Shown piece after piece: positions 47,999-54,275 of a stretch of 64,000 bases of DNA. Position 1 is the first letter of the stretch. The number at the start of each line of letters is the position of its first letter. The notes beneath the pieces were generated by a model. It did not search any database. It worked only from the letters and a program-made list of their open reading frames with translations, and was not told the DNA's origin. Source of the stretch: an uncultured archaeon (GTDB taxonomy: Archaea > Thermoproteota > Nitrososphaeria > Nitrososphaerales > Gagatemarchaeaceae); contig CAWCYD010000003.1 in NCBI GenBank assembly GCA_963799775.1, positions 224,001 through 288,000 of the forward strand, read 5' to 3'. The position numbers were made by a program, and so were the translations under genes.

Positions 47999-48182
47999 GT
48001 TTTCCCCTTCTCGGACCCCAGGATTCGAGGGATTTTACAGCAGGAGACGATGGGCAGTTCGGCAACTTAAGACAATCGTCGATTTGCCGCATGGAACGCA
48101 CCCGTATAATGCGTACGGGATGTTCAAGCACTCACAGAACAATGCAACTGGATAACTGCAAGATTTTGAATCTATCGCTCGT

Positions 48183-49017
48183 GGATTCTGTTACGTCTTT
48201 TCTCATGACGCCGCTGGCGCACGACGCGACGGGCTGGCCCTGCTCCACTCCATCGGCTCGGAGGACTTCCTGCGCGGGAACTTGTGAAACCGGCTTTCCG
48301 GTTTGGCGATTTTGGAAGTCCGGAAGGAGGGCCCTCTCTCTGGTGGCCTTCTCGATTAGCTCGCTCCATCCGTTTGTGACCGGGATTCCGGCCTTCTGTG
48401 CCGGTCTCATTCCGTTTATTTGGCGTTCGCGCACGTAGTTGTAATTCACCACGTAGCCGTCTAGGATGTTCTTTGCCGTCTCGTTGTGCTTGAGGCTCCG
48501 CATCGGGCGCGTCCTCTCCTTTAATGTCTCGTGGAGCCTTTCAACGATGTTACTTGTTTGCCTTGCTCTGATTCCGACTCTTTGCACAAATTCGACCTTA
48601 TCGACTTTGTATCGGGAGTAGAACACGCGGTTGAAGGCACTCTGATAGACGTGGCTCCCATCGACGAATACTGCCTTTGGCCTCGTCTTGCTCATGTCCA
48701 GCCCTTTTTGGAAGATTGCGACGGCGTCCTCGAATGTCCTTGACCCTGACAGGTGTGACGCCATCAAGAACTTCGTGTGCTCATCAATCATCTCCCAGAA
48801 CCATTGATCGCGGCCTTCGCACTCGATGACCGTCTCATACTCATGCCATTTCCCTTGGGTTAGGAAGTTTCGCCTTCTGAACTTCCTAAACTGCTAAATC
48901 CGGAACACGGTTTCACAAGTTCCCGCGCAGGAAGTCCTCCGAGCCGATGGAGTGGAGCAGGGCCAGCCCGTCGCGTCGTGCGCCAGCGGCGTCATGAGAA
49001 AAGACGTAACAGAATCC
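48183..49017. mobile_element. non-autonomous transposon: 110-bp perfect TIRs, 6-bp TSD GCTCGT
   Basis: 48183-48292 is the reverse complement of 48908-49017; GCTCGT at 48177-48182 and 49018-49023. Confidence 0.85.
48330..48860 (-). pseudogene. IS6-like DDE transposase/integrase fragment
   Basis: WHEYET (expected WHxDET), FVDG..Y, NIVERLHETLKER, YNYVR, PAQKAGI; N-terminus missing. Confidence 0.8.
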
Positions 49018-49065: not shown

Positions 49066-49455
49066 CTAGACGGTTTCCGACTGGAGTTTCCTTTCGAGCT
49101 CCTTCTCGGCTGCTCTCGCGCCCTTCACTATTCTTCCCTGTCTCGTAGCGAATCGGTAGTCTAAGGCGGCAACGAGAACTAGCGCCGCCGTTACAAAGAG
49201 CAATGCTAACTCTAGAACGAGAAGACTCGGATCCGTCAGGTTGACTGTTATCACTCCCTCTCCGCTCGCGAACGGGTAGACAATTTGGAAAGCATACGAC
49301 AAGCTCAGGAAGGCTCCGAGGATAACCGTCAAAATCGAGAGCGACCGCATCCTCCTGTGGGTCGTCTCGATATGCTTCGCAAATTCTTCGTGTGCTTCCA
49401 CCAGCGTCGCCCCGGGCGATCTCTCTGCGTCGCTGCCTGTTGACAAGCTCTTCAC
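49066..49455 (-). CDS. two-TM hypothetical protein
   Basis: 129-aa ORF with 2 TMs, just downstream of the wHTH gene. Confidence 0.6.
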   Translation of the reverse strand: MKSLSTGSDAERSPGATLVEAHEEFAKHIETTHRRMRSLSILTVILGAFLSLSYAFQIVYPFASGEGVITVNLTDPSLLVLELALLFVTAALVLVAALDYRFATRQGRIVKGARAAEKELERKLQSETV

Positions 49456-49459
49456 TCGC

Positions 49460-49760
49460 TCAAAATGGAACCTTAAAGGCTTCCTGACCGGAGGTCAGTT
49501 TCACGCCGCTCTCCCACTGGTTCCACAAACTCATGTAATGAGTATAGGCATTGAGCCCTTCCTCCGTGATTCTGTGGATTTCGTGGTCGGCCTCGATGCG
49601 CTTAGCTACCCAACCGTTCGCGTGCATCGGCTCCAGGTCCCCGGCCTAGCCGGCCGTAATTGATGTTGCAGCGCTGAGCAAGCCGCGAGGAATTCATTGG
49701 CCCTTCCTTCAACGCGGCCAATATTTTCATCGCGTTAGCCAACGAGTCCCCGTGGGCCAT
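49460..49760 (-). CDS. winged HTH regulator (HTH_45-like; frameshifted)
   Basis: KILAALKEGPMNSSRLAQRCNINY...HRITEEG. Confidence 0.75.
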
Positions 49761-49928
49761 AGTGACCGCTTCGAAAAGGCGGGTTCCCGTCGATAAAAGC
49801 ATGCCAACCAGTGTTTCTACTGACCGAACGTCCGGACCAGGTGTCAGAAATCGTCTATAAGCTGGGGGCGACCTCTCCTCTCATGACTTCGACTTTCGTG
49901 AAGTCGGCGTGGTTGTGAGACTCGCTGC

Positions 49929-50969
49929 TTGACGGATGTTCCTGCGCTAGTTCTCAAAAGTCGCCTTGCAGAATTGATTTCGCGGAGCTCCGCTCTCAGA
50001 CTTGCAGCTGATCCGACGGACCATCGAGCCTGTTGCATTGCTCGGTTCGGCGGAACCCACGCACAAACTCGCGATTGCCCGGCGCGCCTCTTTTGCGAAG
50101 ATGGGGGAATCGTGATACCCACCGGCCTGAGCGATGGCCCTTTTCGAAGACCGCGATCACCTAACTTTCGAATCCCCAGACTCATCCCGCTGGTGAACCC
50201 GCTCGACGAGAGGACATTCGCCCATAGACATCTCGAAGGCGTCTTTCCGATGCTGGCTGTCCAATTATGGAAGATAGTGAGGAGCGGTCCCGCGTACCGT
50301 ACGGCCGTCTCGAAGGGACTGAACCGGATGCTGAGGTTCGATGGGAAGATCTTGATCTCCAGCGTACTGCCGGACGCAGATATCATAGAGAGGGGTGTGG
50401 ACTGGTTCATCGACGCGATTAGGGAGCTGAAACCTGATGCTGTGACGACTTGGGATGTCCCGACCTATTCCGACCATCCTAGGATGGCCTCGCTCAACTG
50501 GATGATGACCGGGCTTGATGCAGCGAGACGGATGTCACTCGAGCTTGACACGCCTCTTATTGGGCTCGCGGCAGGAGCTGACATCCGCCAAGTGGGGTTG
50601 TCATCGTCCTGCTTACGGGCGATGGGTTTCGAGCACCAGGCACTCGCATGCCACGAGTTGCTGGTCGAGAGACGACACCGATACCTGAGATCGTGCGCGG
50701 AATTGGTAAAAAGCAACTGTTCTCACATGACGTTGCTGTCCTGTTCTCATCCAAACCTGTTTGAGAAGTTCAAGATGGCGGACCATTTTGTCGGGATGTC
50801 CTGGTTCAACCAGGCCATCAGGGGACGGCGACCGCGGAGCAGGTCAAACAAGGTTGGTCACGGAAGCAAGGAGACCATCGACTTGACGAGGGAGAATCTG
50901 GTTGAAACCCTCCGCGCTTTACGCGAGTCATTCCCAACTGACCACGAGGAGGCGAACGACACTGGGTAG
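49929..50969 (+). CDS. DUF4417/TGT-like TIM-barrel protein
   Basis: IRELKPDAVTTWDVPTYSDHP resembles the DUF4417 PDFSxYxDxP motif; LIGLAAG; N-terminal Cys cluster. Confidence 0.55.
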   Translation: MTDVPALVLKSRLAELISRSSALRLAADPTDHRACCIARFGGTHAQTRDCPARLFCEDGGIVIPTGLSDGPFRRPRSPNFRIPRLIPLVNPLDERTFAHRHLEGVFPMLAVQLWKIVRSGPAYRTAVSKGLNRMLRFDGKILISSVLPDADIIERGVDWFIDAIRELKPDAVTTWDVPTYSDHPRMASLNWMMTGLDAARRMSLELDTPLIGLAAGADIRQVGLSSSCLRAMGFEHQALACHELLVERRHRYLRSCAELVKSNCSHMTLLSCSHPNLFEKFKMADHFVGMSWFNQAIRGRRPRSRSNKVGHGSKETIDLTRENLVETLRALRESFPTDHEEANDTG

Positions 50970-51507
50970 GGGCAATTACTCGTCGCACTTTCCAGGGGCG
51001 AGTCAGACTGCGAACAGTTCGTCTCTTTCCGGTAAGGCAAGTGCCTCGGGTCAAACGATCTTGCCGATTGAAGGGCTCACCAACGACCAGTCTACCTGGA
51101 CAAATCCCGTTCTTGCCACTAAAGACGACGAAATCGTTCTCTATAGGGAGTACGTGCCCGCCATGTGTACTGCATTCGTCTATCAGAGAGAAGGTGGCAG
51201 GATGGAGGTCTACTTTTCTGATATCAAAGGATATCACTCTTTTGTTGCGGATAATGTATTGCCCGACGGACGGCTCGTTGAGAACAAATCGGGACTCGTT
51301 CCTATCGAGGCAAGACGTCAATTTTGGAACTACGTGATGCATATTCAGGAAACCGGAGGCTCGCTCGACCTCAATTTCTTCCGCAGTCCACTCACTGGCA
51401 AGGTGGGACCGACCGCGCCGTTCGCTTCAATCTTAAACGAGGCATCAAGAAGATACAAGATAGACATTCACTTCTTTGACTACGATTGGTGGGAGGAGCT
51501 TCTGTAA
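50962..51507 (+). CDS. putative toxin with a (M)GRG N-terminus and a C-terminal restriction endonuclease-fold domain
   Basis: GAGGAGG 9 nt before CTG; Ser/Gly-rich N-terminus; VADNVLPDGRLVENKSG...RRQFWNY (D..ExK..QxxxY). Confidence 0.6.
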   Translation: MGRGNYSSHFPGASQTANSSSLSGKASASGQTILPIEGLTNDQSTWTNPVLATKDDEIVLYREYVPAMCTAFVYQREGGRMEVYFSDIKGYHSFVADNVLPDGRLVENKSGLVPIEARRQFWNYVMHIQETGGSLDLNFFRSPLTGKVGPTAPFASILNEASRRYKIDIHFFDYDWWEELL

Positions 51508-51508
51508 C

Positions 51509-51859
51509 ATGTCAGAATACAAGGCCATGGAAGCATTGTCTTGGCTCGCGAAGAACAAGAATCCGCATGCGTTTGCGGGGAATCGCTTCCAAACAACCGC
51601 TGACACGATTGGAGCCGTCAAGCGACTCTACTCGGCCGGCGCTACGCGCGTCTCCATTGGACCTCCGTTGGAAGAGCCCGAAAGACTTCGAGAGGACGGC
51701 GGGCCTTATGCGGACGTCTTGGAAATTGCGTTTCCAAAAGACAAGATCAGCCAAATAATGTCCGTAGTCAGGACTCTGGCTCCCGATGAGGGAGGAGAAT
51801 TGAAAGACGTTCTCAAGATTGACTACATGCACCGCAGAATGATATTATGGTGGGATTGA
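51509..51859 (+). CDS. putative immunity protein
   Basis: 116 aa, 1 nt after the toxin stop with a GGAGGAG RBS; EAL.WL..N.N...A.NRF...LY.AGA...GG.YAD...LWWD. Confidence 0.55.
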   Translation: MSEYKAMEALSWLAKNKNPHAFAGNRFQTTADTIGAVKRLYSAGATRVSIGPPLEEPERLREDGGPYADVLEIAFPKDKISQIMSVVRTLAPDEGGELKDVLKIDYMHRRMILWWD

Positions 51860-52132: not shown

Positions 52133-52258
52133 CCCTCGCGACACGTCAATCGTCGTTGGAAATGCTCAGAAATCACCCGTAGATTGGACAGAGCCCTTGG
52201 TCGAGGTGCAATCCTTATAAGACAATCGTCGAAGGCCTGCCGAATCGCGTGAAATAGG

Positions 52259-52570
52259 TTGGCAAGATTTCTGGCCTTCGTGGACATCTTTGTGGACTCC
52301 CCCTTAATGGACGACGTAGTGCAGGCGCTGATCAAGCTCGAGAACCTCGAAGAGCTATACGAGGTCACCGGCGAGTTCGACGTCGTCACGCTCCTGTCCG
52401 CGAAAGACATCGAAGAATTCCGAGACGTCCTGAAGAACAAGATCATGAAGATCAAGGGAGTCAAGAGCACGGTGAGCTCGGTGGTGCTAAAGGCCTACAA
52501 GGGCCCCAGGTGCATTGCTGAACCGCCTACCGCCAACGAGCCACTGAAGGCAAAACCCGTTCGTCAATAG
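52259..52570 (+). CDS. stand-alone Lrp/AsnC ligand-binding domain protein
   Basis: LYEVTGEFDVV...IKGVKSTVS; no HTH. Confidence 0.88.
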   Translation: MARFLAFVDIFVDSPLMDDVVQALIKLENLEELYEVTGEFDVVTLLSAKDIEEFRDVLKNKIMKIKGVKSTVSSVVLKAYKGPRCIAEPPTANEPLKAKPVRQ

Positions 52571-52617: not shown

Positions 52618-54275
52618 ATGATAGACATATCTCAACTAATCTCAGTAATCCTGATTCTCGGGGGCACGATGGCCGTAGCGTGGCTCATCGCCTCCTACAT
52701 CACAAGGATCTACACGAGGGCACCTAGTCGCCTCGACAGGTTCCTCGCGCCTATCGAGAACTCGATCTACAAGCTCCTGGGTGTCGATCCCTCGCACGGG
52801 ATGTCTTGGAAGGAATACTTCCTAGCAGGACTGATCGTCAACATCGCCCAGATGGCGATAGCGTTCGGCATCCTCATGCTGCAGGGGAGCCTTCCGCTGA
52901 ACCCGATGGGGTTCAAGGGGATCAACTGGGACCTCGCCGTCAACACCGTGATTTCTTTCGCGACCAACACCAACCTGCAGCACTACAACGGTGAGACGAC
53001 GCTCTCGTACTTCAGCCAGATGGGCGCAATCCAGTTCCTCCAGTTCACATCGGCCGCCACTGGCATCTGCATGGGGGTGGCAATGGTCCGAGGGTTGATC
53101 GTCGGGTCGAAGGACATGGGTAACTTCTACGTAGATTTCACCAGGTCGCTCACGAGACTGCTCCTTCCGTTCTGTTTCATCGCCGCCCTGATCCTAGTCT
53201 GGATGGGCGTGCCTCAGACCATCGGAGGCTACCTCCCCATAACGACGGTGCAAGGTGCCACGGGCTCGGTCCTCGTGGGTCGCCTGTGGCCTCGCTCGTC
53301 TCGATCATGCAGCTGGGCACAAACGGCGGCGGATACTACGGAGCAAACTCCGCTCATCCGTTCATGAATCCGAGTCCTTCCTCCGACGTGCTCGAGATCT
53401 GCCTCATGCTCTTGTTGCCGACAGCCCTTGTCTTCGTCTTTGGCGAGCTTCTGGGCAAGAAGAGGGAGTCAAGACCTGTGCTCATCGGCGCCTATGCGCT
53501 CTTCGTCATAGATCTGGCGATCGCGTTCATCCCGACCATCCCGCAGGTAGCGGCTGGGATAGAGACGAGGATCGGGGGATTCTTCTCCGCCTTTTGGACC
53601 GTCGTGACCACTGCTGTGACGACGGGGTCCGTAAACACGTCGCTGTCGGCGATGCACCCTCTCGTGATACTTGGGGGCTTCATGGGGATGCTGATCCAAG
53701 CCACGCCCGGAGGGAAGGGTGTCGGATTGGCATACATGGTCATGTACATCGTGATAACCGTCTTCATCGTGGGACTCATGTCCGGGAGGACTCCTGAGTA
53801 TCTCGGGATCAAGATCAACTCACGCGACGTGAAGATAGTCCTGGTGGCCTTCCTGATTCATCCCATAGTCATCCTTGTCCCGACCATACTCGCATACGCC
53901 ACCGGAGCCGCTCAGGCAATTGGGGTATCTGGCAATTCGCTTGGATTCACCCAGATTCTCTGGGAGTACACTTCAGCCGCAGCAAACAACGGGTCTGATT
54001 TCCTAGGAGCGTCTGCGAATACCGTCTTCTTCAACATCACCACCGGGGCTGTGATCTTCATAGGACGATACGCTCCAATAGGATTGATGCTGGCCCTCGC
54101 TGGTTCGGTAATCGGAAGGAAGAGGAGCTCTGACGCCGGCGGCCTCAGGACTGACAGCTTCACCTTCTCGGCCGTGCTAATCGGGAGCATACTGATCCTC
54201 GTGGTGCTGACCTTCCTCCCGTTCCTGGCGCTCGGGCCTATTCTTTCCTACTTCCAGGGGAATGGGTATGCATAG
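52618..54275 (+). CDS. kdpA: K+-transporting ATPase subunit A (frameshift near 53282)
   Basis: SFATNTNLQHY, QLGTNGGG..GANSAHPF, GRTPEYLG, SAAANNGS. Confidence 0.95.

Follow-up and report, generated by a model that had tools for sequence, protein, structure and literature searches.

A candidate three-gene conflict module pairing a TGT-like enzyme with a glycine-led, nuclease-like protein in an uncultured archaeon

The stretch of DNA considered here, i.e., the window, is 64,000 nucleotides (nt) long and comes from an uncultured soil archaeon of the order Nitrososphaerales (assembly GCA_963799775.1, contig CAWCYD010000003.1, positions 224,001 to 288,000 of the forward strand); coordinates below are positions in the window, and numbers preceded by L (e.g., L018 or L033) designate homologous or compared loci. 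It carries a cassette of three genes on the forward strand, namely (i) gene 1 (49929-50969), starting with TTG and encoding a protein of 346 amino acids (aa) predicted to be a TIM-barrel of the TGT superfamily, (ii) gene 2 (50962-51507), with a probable CTG start and encoding 181 aa with a PD-(D/E)xK-like core, and (iii) gene 3 (51509-51859), starting with ATG and encoding 116 aa with the C-terminus ...MILWWD. A first-pass annotation, made from the sequence alone, had described these three coupled genes, including the small LWWD-ending one, as a candidate toxin or defence cassette of an archaeon. The open reading frames (ORFs) are indeed found at these positions, and the genome is archaeal, since its rRNA operon matches archaeal models of both the small-subunit and large-subunit rRNA.

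The three genes are closely packed. The TAG of gene 1 occupies 50967-50969 and the CTG of gene 2 occupies 50962-50964, so that 8 nt are common to both genes; gene 2 is read in the +1 frame relative to gene 1 and stops at the TAA 51505-51507, one base ahead of the ATG of gene 3 (51509). A Shine-Dalgarno (SD) site GAGGAGG on the forward strand (50946-50952) lies 9 nt before the CTG 50962, and GGAGG at 51492-51496 serves as the SD site of gene 3, 12 nt ahead of its ATG. The 16S rRNA of the same genome ends in ...GGATCACCTCCT (its 3' terminus reading ...CACCTCCT as set against the SD site of gene 2), from which both sites are seen to be true anti-SD complements. The strong SD sites announced at first pass are thus confirmed for genes 2 and 3, but not for gene 1, which is preceded by a weak GTGAG-like site only. 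The order gene 1-gene 2-gene 3 recurs in five distinct loci at 45-70% protein identity, which places the arrangement beyond chance; the cassette is thus made of real genes in a tight and conserved arrangement.

Gene 1 gives a well-defined AF2 model (pLDDT 92.8, pTM 0.91), for which Foldseek returns ArcTGT (1iq8_A) with an E-value of 6.3e-10. By VIA-align, the model superposes on ArcTGT with a Z of 26.1 and a root-mean-square deviation (rmsd) of 2.6 over 267 residues, on DpdA with a Z of 20.9 and an rmsd of 2.7 over 252 residues, and on bacterial TGT, QTRT2 and Cap10 (9ntn_B) with Z values of 20.9, 19.8 and 14.6, respectively; the five TGT-family representatives take ranks 1 to 5, generic TIM barrels reaching a Z of at most 13.4. 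A profile built from 114 sequences of the gene 1 family likewise finds ArcTGT 1iq8 across the whole barrel (E 6e-8), with E-values of about 0.1 for bacterial TGTs and 0.75 for DpdA. Yet gene 1 itself has no match in Pfam (including PF01702), PHROGs or PADLOC, and only a weak one to the NCBIfam model TgtA TIGR00432 (E 0.053, 11.9 bits vs. a cut-off of 350). Taken from model and profile, gene 1 is a divergent member of the TGT superfamily. Of the label “DUF4417/TGT-like” given at first pass, the second half therefore stands and the first does not: there is no match to DUF4417 (PF14386) in Pfam at E<=1, and no feature was found in common between gene 1 and this domain, which has been described as fused to ParB-CTPase folds in phages.

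The catalytic residues expected of such an enzyme are partly in place. In the profile alignment, as opposed to a superposed structure, D285 of gene 1 (in ADHF) pairs with the nucleophile D249 of ArcTGT (in VDLFD), the equivalent of Zymomonas D280 and Cap10 D248; this column holds Asp in 80 sequences out of 107, Asn in 11 and Glu in 4. D176 pairs with the base-reading D130 of ArcTGT and is Asp in 112/114 sequences. A different Asp, D149 (106/114), stands five residues past S144, the position that aligns with the other base-reading Asp of ArcTGT, and might from its position substitute for it. Instead of the C-terminal CxCxxC..H zinc motif still found in distant relatives (e.g., CYCEAC...H), the gene 1 clade has an N-terminal CC...C...C region, whose four Cys are C35, C36, C50 and C56 in gene 1. 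Elsewhere in the same genome are encoded a canonical ArcTGT (253.7 bits to PF01702) as well as QueC and QueD-like genes, the PF06508 matches of this genome lying far from both of its copies of the cassette. Another QueC-like gene, with a QueD-like neighbour, came out in two pieces at G000:C2:258180-258780 (L042/L043) and may be frameshifted.

The beginning of gene 2 deserves particular attention. No ATG, GTG or TTG occurs close to its Gly-Arg-Gly (GRG) motif, and the Leu codon before this motif is CTG in 5/5 distinct loci. The more distant L039 has TTG at the equivalent position, 1 nt past the stop of gene 1, and a GGAGG-like site is found 7-9 nt upstream of this same start codon in L033, L035 and L039. 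In L035/L036, an in-frame stop is met six codons upstream of the motif, and the interval contains no canonical start; in L032, none separates the upstream in-frame stop from GRG, and the first one is met 27 codons past LGRG. The codons of GRGNYS vary synonymously between loci (GGT/GGC, AGG/AGA, GGC/GGA/GGG and TCG/TCA), and this frame is therefore translated. Translation of gene 2 then probably starts at the CTG 50962, its product beginning with (M)GRG, and the locus would offer a probable archaeal example of conserved initiation at CTG. For two metagenomic homologues, gene callers chose as the start a GTG or TTG located one or two codons further upstream.

A programmed +1 frameshift or a read-through fusing genes 1 and 2 was considered and rejected. 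Read-through of the TAG of gene 1 reaches the next stop after 21 codons, L037 has CAG in place of TAG together with a different frame relation of the two genes, and distant relatives have separate ATG starts for the protein at the position of gene 2; since L037, L039 and all distant relatives start this protein separately and in other frame relations, a fusion is unlikely. The protein so delimited opens with (M)GRGNYSSH and continues with a Ser/Gly tail, residues 1-52 (50962-51117) being disordered in the model (pLDDT < 50). This predicted-disordered tail is conserved at the protein level, and the Gly-led GRGNYS start and Ser/Gly linker pointed out at first pass are thus both present and kept among homologues.

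Beyond the tail, the core of gene 2 (residues ~53-181) is modelled as a helix, three strands, a helix and a strand with pLDDT of 64-93. The D..ExK..QxxxY pattern reported earlier holds throughout the alignment: D97 (51250-51252), E107 (51280-51282) and K109 (51286-51288) are invariant in 11/11 aligned homologues, as are N98, N108, Q120 and Y124, to which is added a C-terminal DWWEEL motif, and the residues D97, E107 and K109 sit on or beside the model strands E93-95 and E105-110. The best Foldseek match is EndoMS (E 9e-3), and VIA-align gives Z values of 6.9 for SfsA (rmsd 3.0 over 88 residues), 6.2 for AF1548, 5.7 for NucS, 5.6 for EcoT38I, 5.5-5.6 for FANCM/FAAP24, 5.2 for TseT and 5.0 for Can2, in a range where alpha/beta proteins of the STAS type reach similar values (Z 5-6). 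PD-(D/E)xK nucleases are overrepresented among these moderate matches, and several nucleases take the top ranks. When the motif is considered together with the model, a restriction-endonuclease-like fold is likely for this core, in agreement with what had been suggested from the sequence. A PADLOC match of gene 2 to DruB (E 0.0035, 14 bits) was treated as noise.

As regards gene 3, the protein is 56-58% identical in L033, L035 and L037, where its start always falls 1-2 nt past the stop of gene 2. It has no match in Pfam, NCBIfam, PHROGs, PADLOC or by PDB-sequence profile. A lead from the ESM Atlas, YfbO, was set aside as unreliable, its recognition value of 1867 being below the benchmark of 2300. 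Genes 2 and 3 each end in a Trp-Trp-acidic motif, i.e., DWWEELL (51480-51507) and LWWD (51840-51859), which is kept in homologues of both and may, judging from the sequence, be a shared docking motif.

The pairing extends well beyond the window. Homologues of gene 1 number 27 in a search of 5.8 billion proteins, and its family amounts to 185 clusters (E<=1e-3) in a set of 1.84 billion representatives. Among sampled genomes of the phylum, a homologue is present in 29/401, with 13/17 in one genus, several genomes of which hold five or more copies. In 27/31 loci, a long ORF beginning with Met/Leu-Gly comes directly after the TGT-like gene, the distance lying mostly between -19 and +9 nt; this count covers loci with at least 300 nt downstream, five duplicates being dropped and five loci with incomplete 3' ends being left unscored. 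The four misses correspond to a frameshifted locus (L019), a weak homologue (L029), a false hit to TsaD (L031), and a script artefact (L037), the latter actually having CTG-GRG. The homologues of gene 1 are therefore followed by Gly-led proteins with variable C-termini, the pattern that the first-pass annotation had proposed to look for: the partner domains behind the Gly-led start comprise LAGLIDADG_3 (E 1.7e-16, 4.5e-15 and 9.3e-16), HD-CE (6.7e-8), and PD-(D/E)xK-like ones.

The relatives are organised as compact operons, among which several layouts can be discriminated. In type A, a TGT-like protein of 354-402 aa with a Cys-rich N-terminus (one member, L018, standing narrowly above the Pfam TGT cut-off with 27.1 vs. 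26.3 bits) is followed by a partner of 300-313 aa, which starts with MG[GSAE][GA][STKD]..Q...RF and contains a LAGLIDADG_3 domain, and by a third protein of 216-230 aa, which starts with a WGWGD-like motif in most copies; this third protein has no Pfam match above noise and no Atlas match. In type B, a metallophosphoesterase is fused to the TGT-like part, and the downstream protein is MGQ-led, with lengths of 467, 472 and 755 aa in the three examples that were read completely. In L039, the gene 1 homologue (41% identical) is followed by a (TTG)GKHKYS-led HD-CE protein and then by a 412-aa protein. The TGT model of PADLOC matches the relatives L050 (2.4e-6) and L039 (6e-6). In many genomes of another genus, type A operons occur in several copies per genome and are inserted among housekeeping genes (L048, L049, L052-L057), type A and type B operons even lying back to back in L052. 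No gene 1 homologue was found in phage records, plasmid records or two IMG/VR scans.

At the level of the chromosome, the cassette belongs to an insertion. In four same-genus genomes, a metC-like gene is directly followed by an Lrp-domain gene and kdpA, i.e., an empty site, and here ~4.1 kb is inserted between the metC-like gene and the Lrp-domain gene; gene 1 is present in 2/23 same-genus genomes. At the two borders of the insertion stand copies of a 15-nt motif on the forward strand, TAAGACAATCGTCGA, the left one at 48068-48082 and the right one at 52218-52232, the right border of the insertion itself being near 52157. These are its only two occurrences in the 2.47-Mb genome. Same-genus genomes whose metC-Lrp spacer is uninterrupted already have one or two copies of it there; since empty sites hold it, the motif is native to the spacer, and a reading of the two border copies as duplicated target sites or as att sites was rejected. 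This conserved motif, TAAGACAATCGTCG (L059-L061), may function as an operator, either for the Lrp/AsnC-domain protein next to it or in the control of kdp. At the same site, L062 (G406:C39, 2639-3925) carries a putative membrane-protein gene and ~0.8 kb of unrelated DNA, with no gene 1 or TGT-like cassette, homology of its right flank resuming at window position 52157; the site is thus a variable hot spot for insertions. Such an occurrence is that of a gene family which behaves as an accessory or mobile element. One soil-metagenome run yielded seven short contigs and no joints.

Upstream of the cassette, on the reverse strand, two further genes belong to the ensemble. The nearer one (49460-49802), divergent from gene 1, is the winged-helix regulator gene noticed at first pass, present as described but broken by a frameshift into two ORFs, which align in different frames to residues 10-43 and 46-100 of an intact 100-aa paralogue; its family signals are limited to weak HTH_20 and HTH_34 matches in Pfam. 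The other (49066-49455) encodes 129 aa that include hydrophobic stretches; this small protein may be membrane-spanning, according to a reading of these stretches rather than to a prediction tool. It has no Pfam family match above threshold, its homologues in L032, L035/L036 and L040 (48-54% identity) are likewise encoded upstream of the cassette, and its gene is 92% identical at the DNA level to the gene at the same site in L062, the locus that has no gene 1. Further left lies a remnant of an IS6/IS240-type insertion sequence (IS) on the reverse strand (48132-49017), with a truncated DDE transposase ORF (48132-48791; DDE_Tnp_IS240 in Pfam, E 9.4e-13) and 145-nt inverted repeats (48183-48327 and 48873-49017) that are 92% complementary; because this stretch is absent from the related L062 insertion, it is regarded as a later addition. 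On the right side, a stand-alone Lrp/AsnC ligand-binding (RAM) domain of 103 aa without helix-turn-helix (52259-52570) lies directly upstream of kdpA, which itself appears to be divided between two ORFs, 52618-53367 and 53286-54275, that overlap and are read in different frames; this suggests a frameshift or an assembly error.

A second five-gene cassette exists in the same genome (G000:C3:99139-102972, L002/L032), by a geranylgeranyl-reductase-like gene, as in L040. Its gene 1 is 71-74% identical and interrupted by an in-frame TGA, its gene 3 is frameshifted, and its gene 2 and winged-helix gene are intact.

How the products of such genes might work together is best considered in the light of bacterial systems described lately. 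Cap10 of type IV CBASS belongs to the TGT family, has no zinc site and binds CdnD, a CD-NTase, by its N-terminal tail; to the Gly2 amine of CdnD, the QueC-like Cap9 has attached 7-amido-7-deazaguanine. Defence requires the M(G/S)G(G/S)GG motif of CdnD as well as D248 and D73 of Cap10, and the authors propose a transfer to a target still unknown (bioRxiv 10.1101/2025.04.06.647259). In both CdnD and QatB, the N-terminus is unstructured and bears an MGGS or MGTS motif (bioRxiv 10.1101/2025.04.06.647259; PMC13279940).

By analogy with these, a Cap10/CdnD-like handling of the Gly-led tail of the nuclease by the TGT-derived enzyme, within an accessory conflict module, appears as the most likely mechanism, and it is put forward tentatively. 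The suggestion made at first pass that a TIM-barrel enzyme acts on the Gly-led N-terminus has a published precedent in Cap10-CdnD. We infer the following course, in which the ~4.1-kb insertion would bring a three-gene conflict module, for defence or addiction. Gene 1 would supply a base-exchange enzyme of the TGT family, devoid of the zinc motif and derived from an ArcTGT-like ancestor; gene 2 would be made from the CTG overlapping the stop of gene 1, removal of the initiator Met leaving an N-terminal Gly-Arg-Gly. The disordered tail of ~50 residues would carry this N-terminal glycine, the remainder forming a PD-(D/E)xK nuclease-like domain, and the TGT-like enzyme would take the Gly-led tail into or beside its base pocket, the glycine possibly being first conjugated to a 7-deazaguanine. 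Binding of the tail would either hold the putative nuclease in check or, through transglycosylation, plant it on a nucleic acid serving as target; a third subunit or regulator would be provided by gene 3. A complex prediction of gene 1 with residues 2-181 of gene 2 scored 0.25, the mark being 0.32, and speaks neither for nor against binding.

A number of observations weigh against this mechanism. There is no QueC-like gene of the Cap9 type in or beside the cassette, and the TGT-like loci of five multi-copy genomes have none adjacent to them, PP-loop matches elsewhere in those genomes being weak (19-31 bits). The first base-reading Asp of ArcTGT, D95 (D73 in Cap10), aligns with S144 of gene 1 (Ser in 94/114 sequences), owing to which the pocket may not bind 7-deazaguanine canonically. 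Structurally, gene 1 is nearer to ArcTGT and DpdA than to Cap10, and the copy in the window has no PADLOC match. On the side of gene 2, the fold match is moderate (best Z 6.9) and the core is acidic, with an isoelectric point (pI) of 5.1, unusual for a DNA nuclease. Finally, both copies of the cassette carry lesions (the winged-helix gene in the window; gene 1 and gene 3 in the paralogue), and the neighbouring genes, i.e., metC-like, Lrp and kdp, are housekeeping ones, for which reason the surroundings do not qualify as a defence island.

The main rival is a pair akin to restriction-modification (R-M), in which gene 1 would write a base-exchange mark in its own DNA in the manner of DpdA, the nuclease would cut unmarked DNA, and the tail would only dock. 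Such DNA marking finds favour in DpdA being the second-best structural match (Z 20.9), in the basic character of gene 1 (pI 9.0), in a nuclease-type partner being always adjacent, and in a genome able to make preQ0 (QueC, QueD-like gene and ArcTGT). However, the cassette has no DpdB/ParB-like ATPase, DpdC or preQ0 genes, the near-universal Gly at position 2 and the conserved disordered tail are left unexplained, and partners with LAGLIDADG or HD domains are not typical restriction subunits. Moreover, in the paralogous cassette gene 1 has a TGA and gene 2 is intact, a combination that a cell with a strict R-M pair could survive only through protection in trans by the window copy. On balance, this explanation is considered doubtful.

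The handling of a Gly-led tail could also be pushed further, toward a QueC-independent archaeal conjugation of protein to nucleic acid. The TGT-derived enzyme would then plant the nuclease covalently on RNA or DNA via its Gly N-terminus, either through the alpha-amine or after deazaguanylation by a housekeeping enzyme, and the effectors (PD-(D/E)xK, LAGLIDADG, HD or metallophosphoesterase) would be swapped from one branch to another. In this strong form, the idea is unlikely.

The first-pass annotation favoured a polymorphic toxin system, in which gene 2 would encode a toxin acting as a nuclease, gene 3 the protein conferring immunity to it and gene 1 an enzyme processing or loading it. In every case a small gene comes 1-2 nt behind gene 2, the branches of the family have different C-terminal domains, and nuclease toxins of type VI secretion (T6SS) and contact-dependent inhibition (CDI) systems, namely TseT, PA3907 and CdiA-CT, appear among the weak fold matches of gene 2 (Z 4.7-5.2). 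Against this, no secretion, trafficking or pre-toxin domain was found in gene 2 by Pfam or in the model, its N-terminus being instead the 50-residue disordered tail. What suggests an immunity role for gene 3 is its position; the protein, with a pI of 6.1, is close to neutral, resembles no known immunity family and no protein of known function, gives way to an unrelated third gene in other branches (~216-230 aa or 412 aa), and is frameshifted in the paralogue while gene 2 remains intact. A toxin-immunity system is thus judged quite unlikely.

In a selfish element of the homing type, the nuclease-like partner, LAGLIDADG in most branches, would drive the spread and the TGT-like gene would be accessory. 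LAGLIDADG_3 domains are indeed present in partners at many loci, some genomes hold five or more copies, the copy in the window is an insertion at a variable site, and a homing-endonuclease model of PADLOC gives matches (E 5.1e-5). Nonetheless, the borders show no target-site duplication, the 15-nt motif pre-existing in empty sites, and the element has no recombinase of its own; the partner in the window is not LAGLIDADG, and a conserved three-gene operon exceeds the usual homing-endonuclease genes in size. LAGLIDADG_3 domains also belong to DNA-binding proteins without cutting activity. This origin seems very unlikely. As for a specialised housekeeping paralogue, in which gene 1 would modify a guanine of tRNA or rRNA with genes 2 and 3 as accessories, it has in its favour that ArcTGT is the nearest relative by profile and structure, yet it is scarcely credible for a gene without PUA/C-terminal tRNA-binding domains and zinc motif, located in an insertion with its cassette in 2/23 same-genus genomes, when the canonical ArcTGT (253.7 bits, PF01702) is encoded elsewhere in the genome.

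Returning to the Cap10/CdnD-like handling of the tail, its elements can be set against known systems one after the other. No account of such a pairing of a TGT-like enzyme with a Gly-led nuclease was found by full-text searches of the literature, supplementary files, which may list related operons, being outside the search. The core of gene 2 shares with SfsA, AF1548 and NucS/EndoMS the alpha-beta-beta-beta-alpha-beta arrangement and the D...ExK motif, but it has no detectable sequence relationship with them, and the Z values of 5.7-6.9 lie in the range that the tool calls common. With ArcTGT/TgtA (PDB 1iq8), gene 1 has in common the alignment of the nucleophile Asp and of one base-reading Asp, ArcTGT being its top match by profile and structure; unlike ArcTGT, it is reduced to the catalytic barrel, lacks the C-terminal/PUA domains and CxCxxC..H, has an extra N-terminal four-Cys region, falls below every curated cut-off, and coexists with a true ArcTGT encoded elsewhere in the genome. 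With DpdA (PDB 7ui4), the DNA preQ0 insertase of the Dpd system, the likeness lies in the TGT fold and in a conflict system including nucleases, whereas no DpdB (ParB-like ATPase), DpdC or Dpd restriction genes occur in the cassette or its paralogue, and the sequence match is at E 0.75. In QatB-QatC of QatABCD, too, a 7-deazaguanine-pathway enzyme handles a partner whose N-terminus is unstructured and whose MG-led motif is essential; there, however, the enzyme belongs to the QueC family and not to the TGT family, and no QatA- or QatD-like genes were found at the locus (PMC13279940).

The closest precedent is the Cap10-CdnD pair of type IV CBASS (PDB 9ntn). In both cases, a TGT-fold enzyme without zinc site stands beside a Met-Gly-led partner with a long unstructured N-terminal extension, the tail of the partner sitting in the base pocket in the case of Cap10, and in both the genes occur patchily as accessory ones. 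The differences are no less clear: the partner here is PD-(D/E)xK-like (LAGLIDADG or HD in relatives) instead of a CD-NTase, the cassette has neither QueC-like Cap9 nor Cap11 nor a cyclic-nucleotide effector, the host is archaeal, gene 1 matches ArcTGT better than Cap10 (Z 26.1 vs. 14.6), and the equivalent of D73 is Ser. There are no PADLOC CBASS matches at the locus, and the family of genes 1 to 3 is not a member of CBASS, being without CD-NTase, without adjacent QueC-like gene and with a pocket that differs at one base-reading position. Conjugation of a nucleobase to a protein at an N-terminal glycine has been described in 2025-2026 only, for type IV CBASS and Qat, both of them bacterial (bioRxiv 10.1101/2025.04.06.647259; PMC13279940). 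The archaeal family would keep the TGT-like half and the Gly-led tail, with nuclease-type effectors replacing the signalling enzyme and with no QueC-like writer. If the analogy holds, a TGT-fold enzyme can act on protein tails without Cap9, simpler systems of two or three genes become available for finding the target of the transfer, and the archaea, the immune systems of which are poorly surveyed, gain a candidate defence family; the locus may then be an undescribed archaeal counterpart of a bacterial antiviral system.

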